Source: Dehalococcoidia bacterium (GTDB taxonomy: Bacteria > Chloroflexota > Dehalococcoidia > Bin125). Taken from it: a stretch of 64,000 nucleotides of DNA. How positions within the stretch are numbered: position 1 is the stretch's first letter; each line of letters starts with the position of its first letter. The notes below the pieces were generated by a model. That model was not told the DNA's origin. It did not search any database and was given only the letters and a program-made list of their open reading frames with translations. A program made the translations under genes and the position numbers. Below, one piece after another: positions 12,255 through 54,803 of the stretch. The stretch lies in assembly GCA_963662615.2 (NCBI GenBank), contig CAXXSR010000001.1, positions 928,001 to 992,000 on the forward strand. The letters are read 5' to 3'.

Positions 12255-13825
12255 AGCCAGCAGTTACTCGGATCGTCGGTTACGTCCGCGTCTCGACCGA
12301 TGAGCAGGTGGACGGCCGCTCCCTCGACGCTCAGCAGCGGGAGATCGAGCGATACGCGGATCAGCACGGCCTGGCCCTCGTGGGCATCTACGCCGACGAA
12401 GGGGTGAGCGCACACACCGATCGGCTCGAAAAGCGCCCACAACTCTCCGCGCTCCTGGCTGATGCGAGCCGCGGCGCGTTCGACGCGGTGGTGGTCCACA
12501 CGATCGACCGTTGGGCGCGGAACATCCGTGTGCAGACGGATGCGCTCCAGCGGCTCGGCAAGGCGGGCGTCGGGTTCGTCAGCCTCACAGAGAACATCGA
12601 CTTTTCCACCCCGTCCGGGAAATTGATGCTGACGATGATCGGCGGATTCTCCGAGTTCTTCTCGGACCAACTCGCCGTGCACGTCGTGAAGTCGCAGCGT
12701 CAGCGGGCCGAGTCGGGGCTCCCGGTCGGTCCGATCCCGTTCGGCTACGTGCCGGGCGAAGCCCGCGAGACTCCCATCGTGGACCCGGAGGCGGGCAAGG
12801 CGGTCCGGGAGGCGTTCGCGGCCCGCGCCGCCGGCCAGTCGAACGGTGCGATCGCGGCGATGCTGAACCGCGACGGTTTCCGTACAAAGAAGGGGCACCT
12901 CTTCACGGCGCACGCGATGAAGGACCTGTTCAACTGCCGCTTCTACACAGGCATCGTGACCTTCCGCGGCGAGGAGTTCCCCGGCCAGCATGAGGCCCTC
13001 ATTGCGTCTGAACCCTTCGAGCGCGTGCAGGCACGCCGGGTGCGGCGCGGCCCGCATCGCCGGGTGGCAGGCAAGCCGCGCGGCGTGCTCGCGGGGATCA
13101 TCAAGTGCGCCCGGTGCGGGAACTCGCTGCACGCCGAGCGCGGGCGCGAGAGCCGGGCGATGTACCGGGAGCGCCACGGACGCGAGTGCCCGACGAACCG
13201 TCGCTCGCTGATGGCTCACGCGGTGGACGAGCAGATCAGCGCGATCCTCCGCTCCCTCGAACTCTCAGCCGACTGGCGGGACCAGATCGCGGGGTACACC
13301 GCGGACACGGGAGAGCGGAACATTGACAGCCTCCAGGAGAACCGTCAGAGGCTCGTGCGGGCCTACGCGGACGGTGGATTTTCGCTGGCCGAGTACGAGG
13401 CACGCCTCGCAGCCATCGATGCGGAGATCCGCCACGCTTTGGGCACGACGCCGATCGAGGTGGGCGAGGTCGCGGCCCTTCTGGGTGACCTGCCAGGAAT
13501 ATGGGATGAAGCCACCCCGGATGAGCGGAGGCGGTTGGTCGCGCCGATCGTCGAGCGGGTGTTCGTGGACGTGGAGACGAAGCGGATCAGCGGCCTCGTT
13601 CCGATGCCAGGTTTCAGGACGCTGATCGGGGCGGGGATGCAGGAAACCGCCGACGCCGCGGCGGTCCTGTTCCCGCCGGAGTACTCCCCAGCGGGGCAAG
13701 ATGTTGGAGTTGGTGGAGACGGGGGAGAATTGAACTCCCCGTCCAGTCGGCCTCCAACCGGCCCTTCTACGTGCGTAGCCGGGAGTTTATTTCTCGCCCG
13801 CCGTCCGGCCTCCCAGCGGCCCTGA
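12251..13825 (+). CDS. Large serine recombinase (integrase)
   Basis: YVRVSTDEQ catalytic motif, DRWAR, PFGY, recombinase domain, CARCG Zn ribbon, coiled coil; AGGAGG RBS; 3' end overlaps ssrA antisense. Confidence 0.93.
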   Translation: MKPAVTRIVGYVRVSTDEQVDGRSLDAQQREIERYADQHGLALVGIYADEGVSAHTDRLEKRPQLSALLADASRGAFDAVVVHTIDRWARNIRVQTDALQRLGKAGVGFVSLTENIDFSTPSGKLMLTMIGGFSEFFSDQLAVHVVKSQRQRAESGLPVGPIPFGYVPGEARETPIVDPEAGKAVREAFAARAAGQSNGAIAAMLNRDGFRTKKGHLFTAHAMKDLFNCRFYTGIVTFRGEEFPGQHEALIASEPFERVQARRVRRGPHRRVAGKPRGVLAGIIKCARCGNSLHAERGRESRAMYRERHGRECPTNRRSLMAHAVDEQISAILRSLELSADWRDQIAGYTADTGERNIDSLQENRQRLVRAYADGGFSLAEYEARLAAIDAEIRHALGTTPIEVGEVAALLGDLPGIWDEATPDERRRLVAPIVERVFVDVETKRISGLVPMPGFRTLIGAGMQETADAAAVLFPPEYSPAGQDVGVGGDGGELNSPSSRPPTGPSTCVAGSLFLARRPASQRP

Positions 13826-14066
13826 CGGCGGACCAGTCAGAATTGTCTTGGCAGTCCGGTCCCGACACCCCGGACCGAGCAGTCAGGCTAAGTGGCGCCT
13901 CATCCTCACCCGCCCGACGGAGGTGAGAGGAGACGTCGTCGCCTTAGTTAGGCGGCGAGGGCGAACTCTTTTTCGCCAGTTACAATGTTGCCGCTGATTT
14001 ACGAGGGTGCGGCGCCTCGGCACGCAAGACCGGGTGATCAGACCGCTGTCGAGCCCTTTCGTCCCC
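13711..14066 (-). ncRNA. ssrA: tmRNA; tag peptide (A)GEKEFALAA
   Basis: 5' GGGGACG pairs with 3' CGTCTCC-ACCA with G3:U; T-arm GGGAGTTCAATTCTCCC; tag ORF GGC GAA AAA GAG TTC GCC CTC GCC GCC TAA; TACAAT -10 at 14075-14080; adjacent to smpB. Confidence 0.96.
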
Positions 14067-51874: not shown

Positions 51875-52318
51875 CTAGCCGTCCGTCTCCGGCGCTTCTC
51901 CGGCGTGAGGACGCCCGACCAGCCGACCCACGAGGGGATGCCGGTAGTCCTCACCCCGGCGCACCGCGCGCGCGGCGCGCGTGGCCGCCAGGCCCTGCCC
52001 GAGGTAGTAGATGGCGAGGAACGGCGACGCGGTGAGCACCACGGCGAGGACGAGCGCGCCACCGTCGTAGCGGCCGTCCCATGCCAGCAGCGCCAGCGGC
52101 GCCACGACGGCCAGCACGATCAGCAGGAGATTGAGCACGATGATCTGGAAGAGCGACGACTGCAACGCTTGTAGCGCCACCCAGGGCGACGCGTGGAGGT
52201 TGCGGCTGTAGATCGCCACGGACGCGAACACACCCAACAAGGGAAGCAGGGCGAGCCAGGCGCTCAGATGGGCACGCGCCGCCTGCGCTCGTTCCTCCGG
52301 ACTGGCGATAGGCATCAT
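51875..52318 (-). CDS. DUF4870-like membrane protein
   Basis: EER..A..AHLS, QALQS, GEDYRHPLVG. Confidence 0.75.
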   Translation of the reverse strand: MMPIASPEERAQAARAHLSAWLALLPLLGVFASVAIYSRNLHASPWVALQALQSSLFQIIVLNLLLIVLAVVAPLALLAWDGRYDGGALVLAVVLTASPFLAIYYLGQGLAATRAARAVRRGEDYRHPLVGRLVGRPHAGEAPETDG

Positions 52319-52529
52319 GCCGTTGCCGAGCGGGACGGCGTGCCTGCCGCCGCGGCGCGCCGCGCACTCACAGTCCGCCTCCCGCCGGGGTGGCCGCCCC
52401 GCTTAGGCGCACGCGTTCGCAAGGCCAGCTTCCTGACGGGCGACAAGCGCTCAGGCGCCACTAGTGCCGCAATCTTCGCTGAGGCGGTGGGCAGTATAGG
52501 CGCGGGCGCGGGCCCGGACCCGATCCGAT

Positions 52530-52963
52530 CCGGTCGTGCGCCTCCAGCAGGGTGAGGACGGATGCGAGAGGGGTTAACCCACTGTAAATCTTGGCCGCAC
52601 CGCCGATGAGAGCGTTGCGACCCTGCCACGGCCCAACTACGTTGCGGAACAGTTGAGGGCGGGCCGACCCGGGAGAAACGGAGAAAGATCCGAATCGGCC
52701 CAGCCCTAGGGGAGGATGCGGGCCCGTCTTGGGGAGGCGGAGCCCGCCTCTCGAATCTTCGCACAGCTGTTCCGGCACTGCAATAAAGGGTCAACCTCTC
52801 TCTGGGAAATGGCTACGCCCCGGGGAGTCTCGGCCGTGGTCAGGGCCCCAGCGGGGAGCGGGGACCACCGCCGTGAGGCGCGTCCGACGGCCGCGGGCGC
52901 GATACCACGGACACAGTGCTGCGGACCCCTGCCATCCGGCACGTTCCCGCTGGGCGCAACCGG
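52530..52963 (+). ncRNA. Candidate large structured ncRNA (unassigned family)
   Basis: Nested complementary helices closing the 5' and 3' ends, A-rich loops, a GNRA tetraloop, no credible ORF in a ~680-bp gap. Confidence 0.55.
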
Positions 52964-53000
52964 CCGATCGCGCCGCCGTCGCCGGATATACTCGATTCGT

Positions 53001-53543
53001 ATGGTGGGGAGTGCGGGACACGACCTGGGCGCGGCGGAGTCCGTTGAAGCGGAAGCGGTAGGCGTTCCGGGAGAGCGAACCTTCCGCATTCGCCTCCTTG
53101 CCGCCAACGCCTCGGCCTCACTGTGGCTTGAGAAGGAGCAGGTGCAGGCTCTCGCTACGGCGATCCAGCAGATTCTGGTCCAGCATCGCCAGCCCGGCGA
53201 GACGCGGCGGCCCCAGGCGCCCTCCCTGCAAGACTTTCCCCGCTATCCCACGCACGATTTCCGCGTAGGCCGGCTGGCGCTGGGCTTTGACGAAGGCGCG
53301 GACAATCTGGTCATCTACGCCACGGACATGGACGCCGAGGACCCGGGCCATCCCACGCTGCGTGTGACCTTCACGCGGCAGCAGGCCCGGCTCTTCTCGG
53401 CCCAGGCCGAAGCCACGGTGGCGGCGGGCCGCTCCCTGTGCCCCCTCTGCAAGGCGCCCCTGGACGAGCCGACGCATCTCTGCCCGCCCGCCAACGGCCA
53501 CTCGGAGGACGCGGTCGTCTGGCTGGGCCCGCCCGACCTCTAG
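53001..53543 (+). CDS. DUF3090 family protein
   Basis: VGVPGERTF, LEKEQVQAL, FRVGRLALGFD, AGRSLCPLC...HLCPPANGH; TATACT upstream. Confidence 0.85.
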   Translation: MVGSAGHDLGAAESVEAEAVGVPGERTFRIRLLAANASASLWLEKEQVQALATAIQQILVQHRQPGETRRPQAPSLQDFPRYPTHDFRVGRLALGFDEGADNLVIYATDMDAEDPGHPTLRVTFTRQQARLFSAQAEATVAAGRSLCPLCKAPLDEPTHLCPPANGHSEDAVVWLGPPDL

Positions 53544-53546
53544 CGC

Positions 53547-54803
53547 ATGCCAGATCACCCCAGCCCGCGCGCGTCGACGCGCCCTCCCCTGTGGACGCTC
53601 AACTATGCGCTGACCCTGCTGGGCACGTTCACGTTCTTCGGCAGCTTCTTCTATCTCCTCGCCGTCCTGCCGGACTACGTGGATGCCATTGGCGGCAGTG
53701 CCTGGCAGGTTGGCCTGATTGTCGGCGGCTTCGGCTTCGTCCCGCTCTTCCTGCGGCCGCTGTCCGGGCGCTGGAGCGACCGCGGCCGGCGCCTCCGCCT
53801 GATGCGGGTGGCGCTGCTGGTCTTCGCCGTCTCCCTGGGGCTGATGGCGTTGTCGGAGGACATCTGGTCCCTGCTGGCGCTGCGTGTCGTCCAGGGCATT
53901 GGCATGGCGATGTTCCCCACGGCGGCGGGGTCGCTGGTGGCGCAGAGCGTGCCACCGCCGCGACGCGGCGAGGGGCTGGGATTCTTCGGCATGTCCACCA
54001 GCGCGTCGCAAATGGTGTTCCCCGCGCTCGGCTTCGTCATCACCGACGTCTGGGGCTTCGACGCGGTCTTCTTGGTGGCGTCGGTGACGGCGGCCGCCAC
54101 GCTGCTGGTCGTCGCCTTCTTGCACGAACCGCAGCCCGATGCGTCGGGCGCAGCGACGCCGACGCGGACGCTGATCCCGACGAAAGCGCTCTTTCCCATG
54201 GTGATCTTCCTGACGGTCACCCTGGCCTTCTCCGCGACCGCAACCTTCTTACCGCTCTTGGGCGACGAGCGCGATCTGGGCAACGTGGGTCTGTTCTTCC
54301 TTGTCAGCGGCGCCGCGGCCCTCGTCATGCGGCCCACCGCGGGGCGCATGTCCGATCGCGTTGGACGGTTGCCGGTGATCCTGCCGGGGCTGGTTTTTAC
54401 CGCTGTCAGCATGTGGATCCTGACGCAGGCGGAGAGCTTTGGTCTCATGCTTGTGGCGGGCGGCTTTGCCGGGGCGGGGCTGGGGGCGACGCATACCGGC
54501 CTGTTCGCCCTTGCCATTGACCGCGTCCTATCGACCGAACGGGGCAGCGCCACCGCGGTCTTTCAGATGGCCTGGGATATCGGCGGGGTCTCCGGCGGCG
54601 TGCTGCTGGGCTTCGTCGCGCAGGCCCTCGATTTGGTCACCGTGTTCTGGGTCGCGGGGGCGTTTCTGCTCGTGGCCATCGCGCTGCTGCTGCCGGGCCG
54701 GATGCTGGGGTGGACGCGCCCGCTGCCGGGGGCGCACGTCGGTTTGGAAGGCGCCGTCGCGCCGGCCGGGGGCGCGCCGCCGGCGGGCCCGCACCGACAG
54801 TAG
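53547..54803 (+). CDS. MFS transporter
   Basis: 12-TM pattern; GRWSDRGRR and GRMSDRVGR motif A. Confidence 0.92.
   Translation: MPDHPSPRASTRPPLWTLNYALTLLGTFTFFGSFFYLLAVLPDYVDAIGGSAWQVGLIVGGFGFVPLFLRPLSGRWSDRGRRLRLMRVALLVFAVSLGLMALSEDIWSLLALRVVQGIGMAMFPTAAGSLVAQSVPPPRRGEGLGFFGMSTSASQMVFPALGFVITDVWGFDAVFLVASVTAAATLLVVAFLHEPQPDASGAATPTRTLIPTKALFPMVIFLTVTLAFSATATFLPLLGDERDLGNVGLFFLVSGAAALVMRPTAGRMSDRVGRLPVILPGLVFTAVSMWILTQAESFGLMLVAGGFAGAGLGATHTGLFALAIDRVLSTERGSATAVFQMAWDIGGVSGGVLLGFVAQALDLVTVFWVAGAFLLVAIALLLPGRMLGWTRPLPGAHVGLEGAVAPAGGAPPAGPHRQ

Follow-up and report, generated by a model that had tools for sequence, protein, structure and literature searches.

A small structured RNA gene, restricted to one lineage and previously undescribed in Rfam 15 and in the literature searched, lies in the 64,000-nucleotide (nt) stretch of DNA analysed here, hereafter the window, which is taken from contig CAXXSR010000001.1 of a Dehalococcoidia bacterium of the phylum Chloroflexota (assembly GCA_963662615.2, positions 928,001 to 992,000; genome G000). 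The conserved core of this RNA, as delimited by a covariance model, is 141 nt long and is on the plus strand at window positions 52654-52794, where it forms a hairpin, P1, a helix, P2, that encloses a second hairpin, P3, and a single-stranded 3' tail. It is inside the stretch 52530-52963 for which a first-pass annotation, made from the letters alone, had proposed a free-standing, multibranched non-coding RNA of about 435 nt. That a real structured RNA is present at this locus is highly probable. The complete reading that we favour, namely a single-copy small structured RNA gene of about 145 nt or more, read on the plus strand from its own promoter and titrating the translational regulator CsrA, is much less secure and, judged from sequence comparisons, falls somewhat short of an even chance.

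Conservation and distribution of the RNA core

When the segment 52480-53000 was compared by BLAST with 61 related genomes, five relatives matched it, and they matched only at 52655-52797 of the window (query positions 176-318) with 74-79% identity; in the G000 genome itself this stretch is single-copy. A first covariance model built from these six sequences, G000 and the five BLAST relatives, matched 12 of the 65 genomes that make up the whole family, in each of them exactly once and over the full length of the model (positions 1-140). The order comprises the same 65 genomes, and a second covariance model returned the same 12. The carriers are related Chloroflexota of marine type with one copy per genome and they span five of the ten genera. 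In a class-wide sample of 151 genomes the second model matched two, both of this family, and when strict filters were applied the core was found in none of the 144 genomes of other families in that sample. A pattern scan of species-representative genomes returned 105 stretches and, among the 80 that were listed, the eight true ones were all on contigs already known. A metagenome scan returned 11 stretches, six of them genuine, and added three sequences that had not been seen before (contigs mg135, mg136, and mg141), and the structure alignment therefore holds 15 distinct sequences, 12 from genomes and three from metagenome contigs. When the loci of DUF3090, the gene that follows the core, were searched with the full model in five genera that lack the element, nothing credible was found, the best match (11.6 bits, E 0.054) being on the opposite strand inside a gene.

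The first-pass annotation had called the RNA undescribed, and this holds: with the 4227 models of Rfam 15, run on the window at gathering thresholds and on 52300-53100 at E<=10, no match was obtained on either strand of 52300-53100. The 6S RNA model (RF00013) gave no match in G000, a weak blank because this model detects only 5 of 14 control genomes; 6S RNA is in any case an extended rod, about 180 nt in length and interrupted by a central bubble, unlike the consensus here of two hairpins plus a tail. No publication on this RNA was found in the literature on DUF3090, on the loop motif, and on CsrA and small RNAs of Chloroflexi, supplementary files being outside the scope of that search.

Secondary structure of the core

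Over the 15 aligned sequences 91.3% of 484 cells are standard pairs, compared to 34-51% when the 3' partners were slid by one to three columns, and two-sided changes are present in 18 of the 33 pairs, a number that was reached in none of 500 column shuffles. Since the sequences are related the shuffle count is no probability, and the slid control and the counts for the single helices agree with it in direction. P1 (52656-52673 with 52689-52707) is an irregular hairpin of 17 pairs, of which five have two-sided changes, and 92.3% of its cells are paired. Its apical loop of 15 nt, AGAAACGGAGAAAGA at 52674-52688, is almost invariant and contains GGA motifs; the first eight bases of the loop are found in all 15 sequences, and so is AGAAACGG. 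In P2 (52710-52717 with 52755-52762) the Shine-Dalgarno-like strand GGGAGGAT is paired with ATCTTCGC, in RNA letters GGGAGGAU with AUCUUCGC, and five of its seven pairs have two-sided changes with 83.8% of the cells paired. The enclosed P3 (52718-52726 with 52739-52747) is a variable hairpin of nine pairs, eight of them with two-sided changes, in which 95.5% of the cells are paired and the loop (52727-52738) contains a conserved UGGG. The unpaired 3' tail at 52761-52794 is conserved as GCACA-YYY-GTTCC...C-N-AT...TCAA, with invariant alignment columns.

Two pairings between the P1 loop and the tail are hypotheses that the alignment would allow, and we list them as candidates: the loop AACGG with the tail YYGUU, compatible in 92% of cells, and the loop GGAG with the tail UUCC, compatible in 98%, each with no two-sided changes. 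The shuffle control is uninformative for both, as one side is invariant. A third pairing, of the loop GGAGAAA with the tail UUUCUCC, was rejected; it fits eight of the 15 sequences by eye and fails in G000, G004, G009, and mg141. Other pseudoknots were also discarded, a blind scan having given only trivially pairing matches of G-rich with Y-rich segments. An ATG at 52716 shares the frame of DUF3090 in both G000 and G004. A coding reading was rejected because the differences in P3 length are not multiples of three and the frame in which the conserved block is read differs between these two genomes. When G000 was scanned for second copies of the loop motif and the tail motif the counts were not above those of reversed controls. 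One second exact tail motif, TCGCACA-NNN-GTTCC, is present in an intergenic region at G000:C1:1285862-1285876 on the minus strand (locus L150), 14 nt ahead of a Shine-Dalgarno-like AAGGAGG; it may be due to chance, as reversed patterns gave similar counts.

Promoter-like site and conserved upstream box

Upstream of the core, at 52615-52643 on the plus strand, is a promoter-like site, TTGCGA-17 nt-TACGTT, from which transcription would start at about 52650. Ten of the 15 distinct sequences have the more general pattern TTGNNN-17/18-TANNNT on the plus strand ahead of the core, the -10-like hexamer ending 7-62 nt before it. Farther upstream at 52572-52590, also on the plus strand, is a conserved box, GGTTAACCCACTGTAAATC, of the type TWACC-N4-5-GTAAAT, which is a candidate transcription-factor site and whose pattern has a single occurrence in the entire G000 genome. 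In nine of the ten sequences that have the promoter-like site the start of the box precedes the -35-like hexamer by 42-43 nt; in G009 the listed box match is 53 nt upstream of the -35 and is part of three 11-nt repeats that were read by eye. Such a rigid unit of box and promoter appears to be directed toward the element, which favours the plus strand. Three results count against the favoured reading: the promoter-like pattern was not found in five of the 15 sequences (G016, G010, mg135, mg136, and mg141), a strict sigma-70 consensus scan found no sites, the promoter-like site being too weak for it, and no terminator-like sites were found in 52250-53100.

Co-occurrence with csrA and the possible role of the RNA

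The GGA motifs in the loops and a further site, GGAGGAUG, at the P1/P2 junction led us to examine the presence of csrA across the genomes. The gene (PF02599) was found in six of the 65 genomes, namely G000, G004, G009, G010, G016, and G032, and these are exactly the genomes in which the RNA scores high, with 128-140 bits in the first model compared to 64-80 bits in the other six carriers. csrA is absent from all 53 RNA-less genomes, and the family search found it in none of the six low-scoring carriers. A protein query in G015, G008, G026, and G020 gave at best an E value of 0.009, inside large unrelated frames, compared to 2.9e-21 in G032 of the same genus. The apparent absence of both the RNA and csrA from G001 was not counted as a co-loss, as DUF3090 was also not found there and the locus may be unassembled.

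The RNAs of the two groups of carriers differ as well. In genomes that have csrA, or for which its presence is not known, the RNA has four to six GGA motifs per 136-143 nt, where 2.7-4.0 are expected from shuffles, and three or four of these fall within the loop of P1 or P3 or at the junction of P1 and P2. In csrA-less genomes there are two to four, the junction GGA is missing from all six carriers, and three of these also lack the second loop GGA. When genomes of the two csrA-less subtypes were compared with each other in pairs the DUF3090 genes were 87-89% identical and the RNA only 62-69%, whereas in ten pairs of csrA-bearing genomes DUF3090 was 54-67% and the RNA 60-75% identical; between G004, which has csrA, and the csrA-less genomes the values were 76-78% for DUF3090 and only 55-66% for the RNA. 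The RNA is thus evolving faster in the csrA-less carriers. CsrA, a protein of 90 amino acids in G000, looks canonical and intact in G000, G032, G016, and G009. FliW, a protein known to antagonise CsrA, was detected in just two of the six csrA genomes, G000 and G009. In G000 the csrA gene (G000:C1:561351-561506; locus L143, 1501-1773) stands alone between genes for a putative cyclase and a periplasmic binding protein, with fliW on the other contig (G000:C2:235886-236242), and in G009 fliW and csrA are about 5 kb apart.

A mechanism that would account for these observations is as follows. The RNA would be transcribed from its own promoter, TTGCGA-17-TACGTT, under the control of a factor that binds the upstream box at its fixed distance, and it would act in trans and not as a leader of DUF3090. 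CsrA would be contacted at the exposed GGA motifs: the P1 loop has ACGGAG and GGGAG, GGAGGAUG is at the junction of P1 and P2, and some members have GGGGAG in the loop of P3. By binding CsrA the RNA would titrate this regulator in the manner of the Csr/Rsm small RNAs of Proteobacteria. As the RNA persists in relatives that have no csrA, the conserved tail may provide a second activity that is independent of CsrA, either by base pairing or through another partner. Titration of CsrA is the leading mechanism on this analysis, although a weakly supported one, and that CsrA is the partner of the RNA at all is, from what the sequences suggest, doubtful.

Several points weaken this case. The GGA motifs are barely enriched (four to six where 2.7-4.0 are expected), the whole 14-nt loop and the tail are invariant beyond what CsrA binding alone would need, the CsrA proteins of G004 and G010 are divergent, and no Rfam model of the Csr/Rsm RNAs matched at E<=10. 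The csrA-less carriers form a single clade, so that the correlation amounts to about one evolutionary event, and the six csrA-less genomes keep the box, the promoter, and a covarying RNA. This persistence of the RNA with compensated stems in the absence of csrA argues that some function of it is independent of CsrA. This persistence, the invariance of the loop and the tail, the weak enrichment of GGA, and the reduction of the correlation to about one event also speak for a trans-acting small RNA with no connection to CsrA, which would base pair through its tail (UCGCACA-YYY-GUUCC) or bind another protein at the P1 loop, the csrA pattern then being the result of shared ancestry only. We consider this unlikely, because no target was found, the tail motif giving 3+4 genome hits compared to 12+3 for the reversed control, and because it leaves unexplained why the csrA-less clade evolves fast and has lost the junction GGA. 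The facts fit, weakly, with CsrA as the main constraint on the RNA and with a decoy of the Csr/Rsm kind.

Comparison with known regulatory RNAs

The Csr/Rsm family of Gammaproteobacteria, with CsrB, CsrC, RsmX, RsmY, and RsmZ, consists of small RNAs that titrate CsrA. Like these, the RNA described here is small, non-coding, and apparently free-standing, it has GGA exposed in hairpin loops and linkers, one of the motifs (GGAGGAUG) being a mimic of a Shine-Dalgarno sequence, and it is present in every csrA genome of this order (six of six). The box at a fixed distance from the promoter is loosely reminiscent of the GacA upstream activating sequence. Unlike in the Csr/Rsm RNAs, there are only three or four exposed GGA motifs here, two of them within one large 15-nt loop where the Csr/Rsm RNAs have several small ones, a terminator hairpin with a U run is missing, the tail and the loop are invariant beyond GGA, and the RNA is found also in six csrA-less genomes and in a different phylum, Chloroflexota. 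The RNA possibly works like a Csr/Rsm decoy and we do not file it as a member of that family.

Small RNAs of the McaS type in E. coli have a dual function, in that they base pair and also bind CsrA through two GGA sites. The RNA here resembles them in having few GGA sites together with a conserved single-stranded segment, a possible seed, and a dual function of this kind would explain why it persists without csrA; it has no homology to them and any such function of it is putative. It also resembles the orphan riboswitch-like motifs of the type described by the Breaker laboratory, with covarying stems, a conserved loop and junction, a narrow lineage, and a constant neighbourhood. It differs from them in that the element is upstream of the promoter of its neighbour and not in a 5' untranslated region (UTR), and in that there is no conserved expression platform.

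Few regulatory RNAs have been described for Chloroflexota. The carrier organisms are known solely from metagenome-assembled genomes, and for these a covarying small RNA gene with a putatively regulated promoter is a handle on post-transcriptional control. Outside Proteobacteria the control of CsrA is ascribed to FliW. If the link to CsrA is true, RNA decoys would have evolved separately from those of the Csr/Rsm systems of Proteobacteria, and this would help to account for the control of CsrA where FliW is missing. The RNA would then be the first Csr/Rsm-like CsrA decoy outside Proteobacteria, a 140-nt RNA switched on through a box in mostly FliW-less lineages and decaying in a csrA-less sister clade, which we hold to be rather unlikely. 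If the link to CsrA fails, the RNA would still represent a new orphan family, in which the 14-nt loop and the 3' tail are unusually invariant.

Free-standing RNA or leader of DUF3090

The element is in a gap of 682 bp between two divergent genes. On the minus strand at 51875-52318 is a gene for a DUF4870 membrane protein (Pfam PF09685, 3.4e-09), divergent from the core, and on the plus strand at 53001-53543 is the DUF3090 gene (PF11290, 1.5e-34), followed by a gene for an MFS transporter at 53547-54803 (PF07690, 1.6e-53). The first-pass annotation saw no credible open reading frame in the gap, in agreement with which none of the six open reading frames that overlap it had a Pfam match at E<=0.1. 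A DUF4870 homologue is upstream of the element at all 15 loci and DUF3090 is downstream on the same strand at 14 of them.

With this arrangement the element could be a cis-acting leader, a riboswitch or an attenuator, of the DUF3090-MFS operon that is read through from an upstream promoter. Besides its position at 14 of 15 loci, the aptamer-like layout with covarying stems that surround invariant nucleotides in the loop and the junction, the sequestering of the Shine-Dalgarno-like strand in P2, and the lack of a terminator between the element and DUF3090 speak for a leader. Against it, DUF3090 seems to have its own promoter. A TATACT at 52987-52992 on the plus strand, read as the -10 of DUF3090, is 8 nt ahead of the ATG at 53001, an arrangement of the leaderless type, and in eight sequences that carry the element a hexamer of this type precedes the ATG by 6-9 nt (G000, G004 as TACAAT, G009, G016, G010, mg135, mg136, and mg141). 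TATACT is at the same position in three of five loci of the element-less genera (L022, L023, and L025), L024 having TAGACT and L021 being unresolved. Since the -10 is downstream of the element, the element is outside the 5' UTR of DUF3090. In addition, the distance from the core to the ATG of DUF3090 varies from about 27 nt in G010 and 56 nt in G016 to 206 nt in G000 with no conservation of the spacer, and no conserved alternative pairing of terminator and anti-terminator and no expression platform were found there. The distance to the upstream gene varies likewise (about 65 nt in G010, about 100 nt in G016, and 336 nt in G000).

The neighbours can also be replaced while the core is kept. In G032 the element precedes a class-III aminotransferase gene and there is no DUF3090 within 1.5 kb of downstream sequence, and in G010 a methyltransferase gene is between the element and DUF4870. 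Conversely, five genera have DUF3090 without the element, the intergenic space there being only about 90 nt. The element thus looks free-standing and not part of a 5' UTR, as was proposed at first, and we regard a free-standing RNA as the probable case on the gene arrangement and a leader of DUF3090 as improbable.

The TATACT-type hexamer 6-9 nt before the ATG, with no Shine-Dalgarno sequence, was seen in DUF3090 genes of this order at loci L010-L014, L022, L023, and L025, which suggests that the DUF3090 mRNAs of this order may be leaderless. In csrA-less genomes of genus g9 there is a -10-like TACACT about 70 nt upstream of DUF3090 with a conserved hairpin in between.

Strand of the RNA

The plus strand is quite probably the functional one. 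Besides the orientation of the box and promoter unit, P2 has 14 G.U cells at two pairs that on the minus strand would be C.A mismatches, so that P2 would be lost there. The loops on the plus strand are purine-rich, as the first-pass annotation had observed of the unpaired parts, which also favours this strand. The folding energy of the consensus leaves the strand undecided, with -40.05 for the plus and a slightly better -42.84 for the minus strand, and one position in P1 has eight C.A cells that would become G.U on the minus strand; both results weaken the case for plus.

A product of the minus strand would be either a small RNA or a distant 5' leader of DUF4870, with loops rich in C and U (CUUUCUCCGUUUCU and CCCCAA) as possible partners of Shine-Dalgarno sequences. 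Other than the folding energy and the P1 position, the presence of DUF4870 nearby at all 15 loci is in its favour. There is no promoter-like site on that side, where the region in question is unconserved spacer. As for a leader of DUF4870, an AGTATA at 52493-52498, which is TATACT on the minus strand and likely the -10 of DUF4870, is also present upstream of the core in G004, G016, mg135, and mg136; with this hexamer between the element and DUF4870 in several genomes the element is upstream of the DUF4870 promoter, and in G010 the methyltransferase gene lies between the two. A minus-strand RNA is therefore about as improbable as a leader of DUF3090.

The proposed 435-nt structure

All the helices listed in the first-pass annotation could be located in the sequence where it had placed them, and the terminal helix and CGGATG/CATCCG are both part of the minimum-free-energy fold of 52530-52963. 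The fold of this 434-nt stretch has an energy of -222 kcal/mol compared to -199.8 +/- 6.8 for 100 dinucleotide shuffles, all of which it beats (z -3.26). The reverse complement, however, folds nearly as well (z -2.93) and the folding signal of the stretch therefore lacks strand specificity. When the parts were folded separately z was -1.84 for the core, -0.23 for the 5' arm (52530-52653), and +0.63 for the 3' arm (52795-52963), so that each arm alone is like shuffled sequence. The annotation had cautioned that high GC content inflates chance pairing, and rightly so: 32 inverted-repeat pairs of at least 10 nt are present in a region of 801 bp and alternative pairings are plentiful. Thermodynamics alone cannot tell the 435-nt fold from what GC-rich DNA offers by chance.

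The comparison with relatives separates the two parts of the proposal. A core of about 140 nt is conserved and covarying, and it includes the helices AGGGCGGGCCGA/TCGGCCCAGCCCT, in P1, and GCGGGC/GCCCGC, in P3, for which covariation was found; the size of 435 nt and the multibranched architecture did not survive. The remaining helices, that is CGGAACAGTTG/CAGCTGTTCCG, GAGAGGGGTTAACCC/GGGTCAACCTCTC, the terminal helix, and all those in 52800-52963, have no counterpart in relatives, where the flanks are missing or unrelated. CGGAACAGTTG/CAGCTGTTCCG makes use of the conserved tail with a 5' partner that is non-complementary in every other genome, and GAGAGGGGTTAACCC/GGGTCAACCTCTC is confined to G000, where it connects the upstream box with the last part of the tail. 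The two pseudoknots that had been thought possible, CACTGT/ACAGTG and CCACGGCC/GGCCGTGG, are located in the unconserved flanks. Apart from the box and the promoter-like site the 5' arm is unconserved, the 3' arm is a G000-specific, GC-rich spacer that separates the core from the promoter of DUF3090, and both arms are missing or unrelated in G016 and G010.

No RNA run was listed among the public runs that contain the region. Contigs of four public runs were compared over the region and yielded near-identical strains plus short pieces of the elements of other carriers. Contigs from independent runs span the whole gap with only 3-4 differences and the region is thus no assembly artefact, a point in favour of the 435-nt reading as well; such strains hold too little variation for testing the outer helices. 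The sole strain variant within the terminal helix, 52552 G>A, would disrupt a pair. A single multibranched RNA closed by the terminal helix, in whose supposed 5' arm the box and the promoter-like site would fall, is highly improbable in spite of its folding score, and the 435-nt fold is most likely an over-reading of an RNA of about 140-150 nt.

In the same comparison position 52828 of the window, a T, was a G in the contigs of all four runs, so that the T could reflect strain variation or an error of assembly. The short pieces were of G004-, G009-, and G016-type elements, present in the same runs, and several carriers thus share habitats.

Other features of the window and of related loci

At gathering thresholds Rfam gave a single match in the window, a complete tmRNA gene at 13711-14066 on the minus strand (RF00023, 165.1 bits, E 2.2e-65, model positions 1-374). 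Finally, at three of the element-less loci, L022 (1286-1288), L023 (1267-1269), and L025 (1309-1311), all on the minus strand and from G007, G018, and G002, respectively, the gene divergent from DUF3090 has an in-frame TGA. By reading of the sequence these genes are peroxiredoxin-like, the TGA is within FTGG*T(N/S)EL, and past it the frame continues without a stop for over 100 codons. Enzymes of the peroxiredoxin type normally have the catalytic cysteine at the position of that TGA, and the divergent gene in these three genera is a candidate for a selenocysteine peroxiredoxin.

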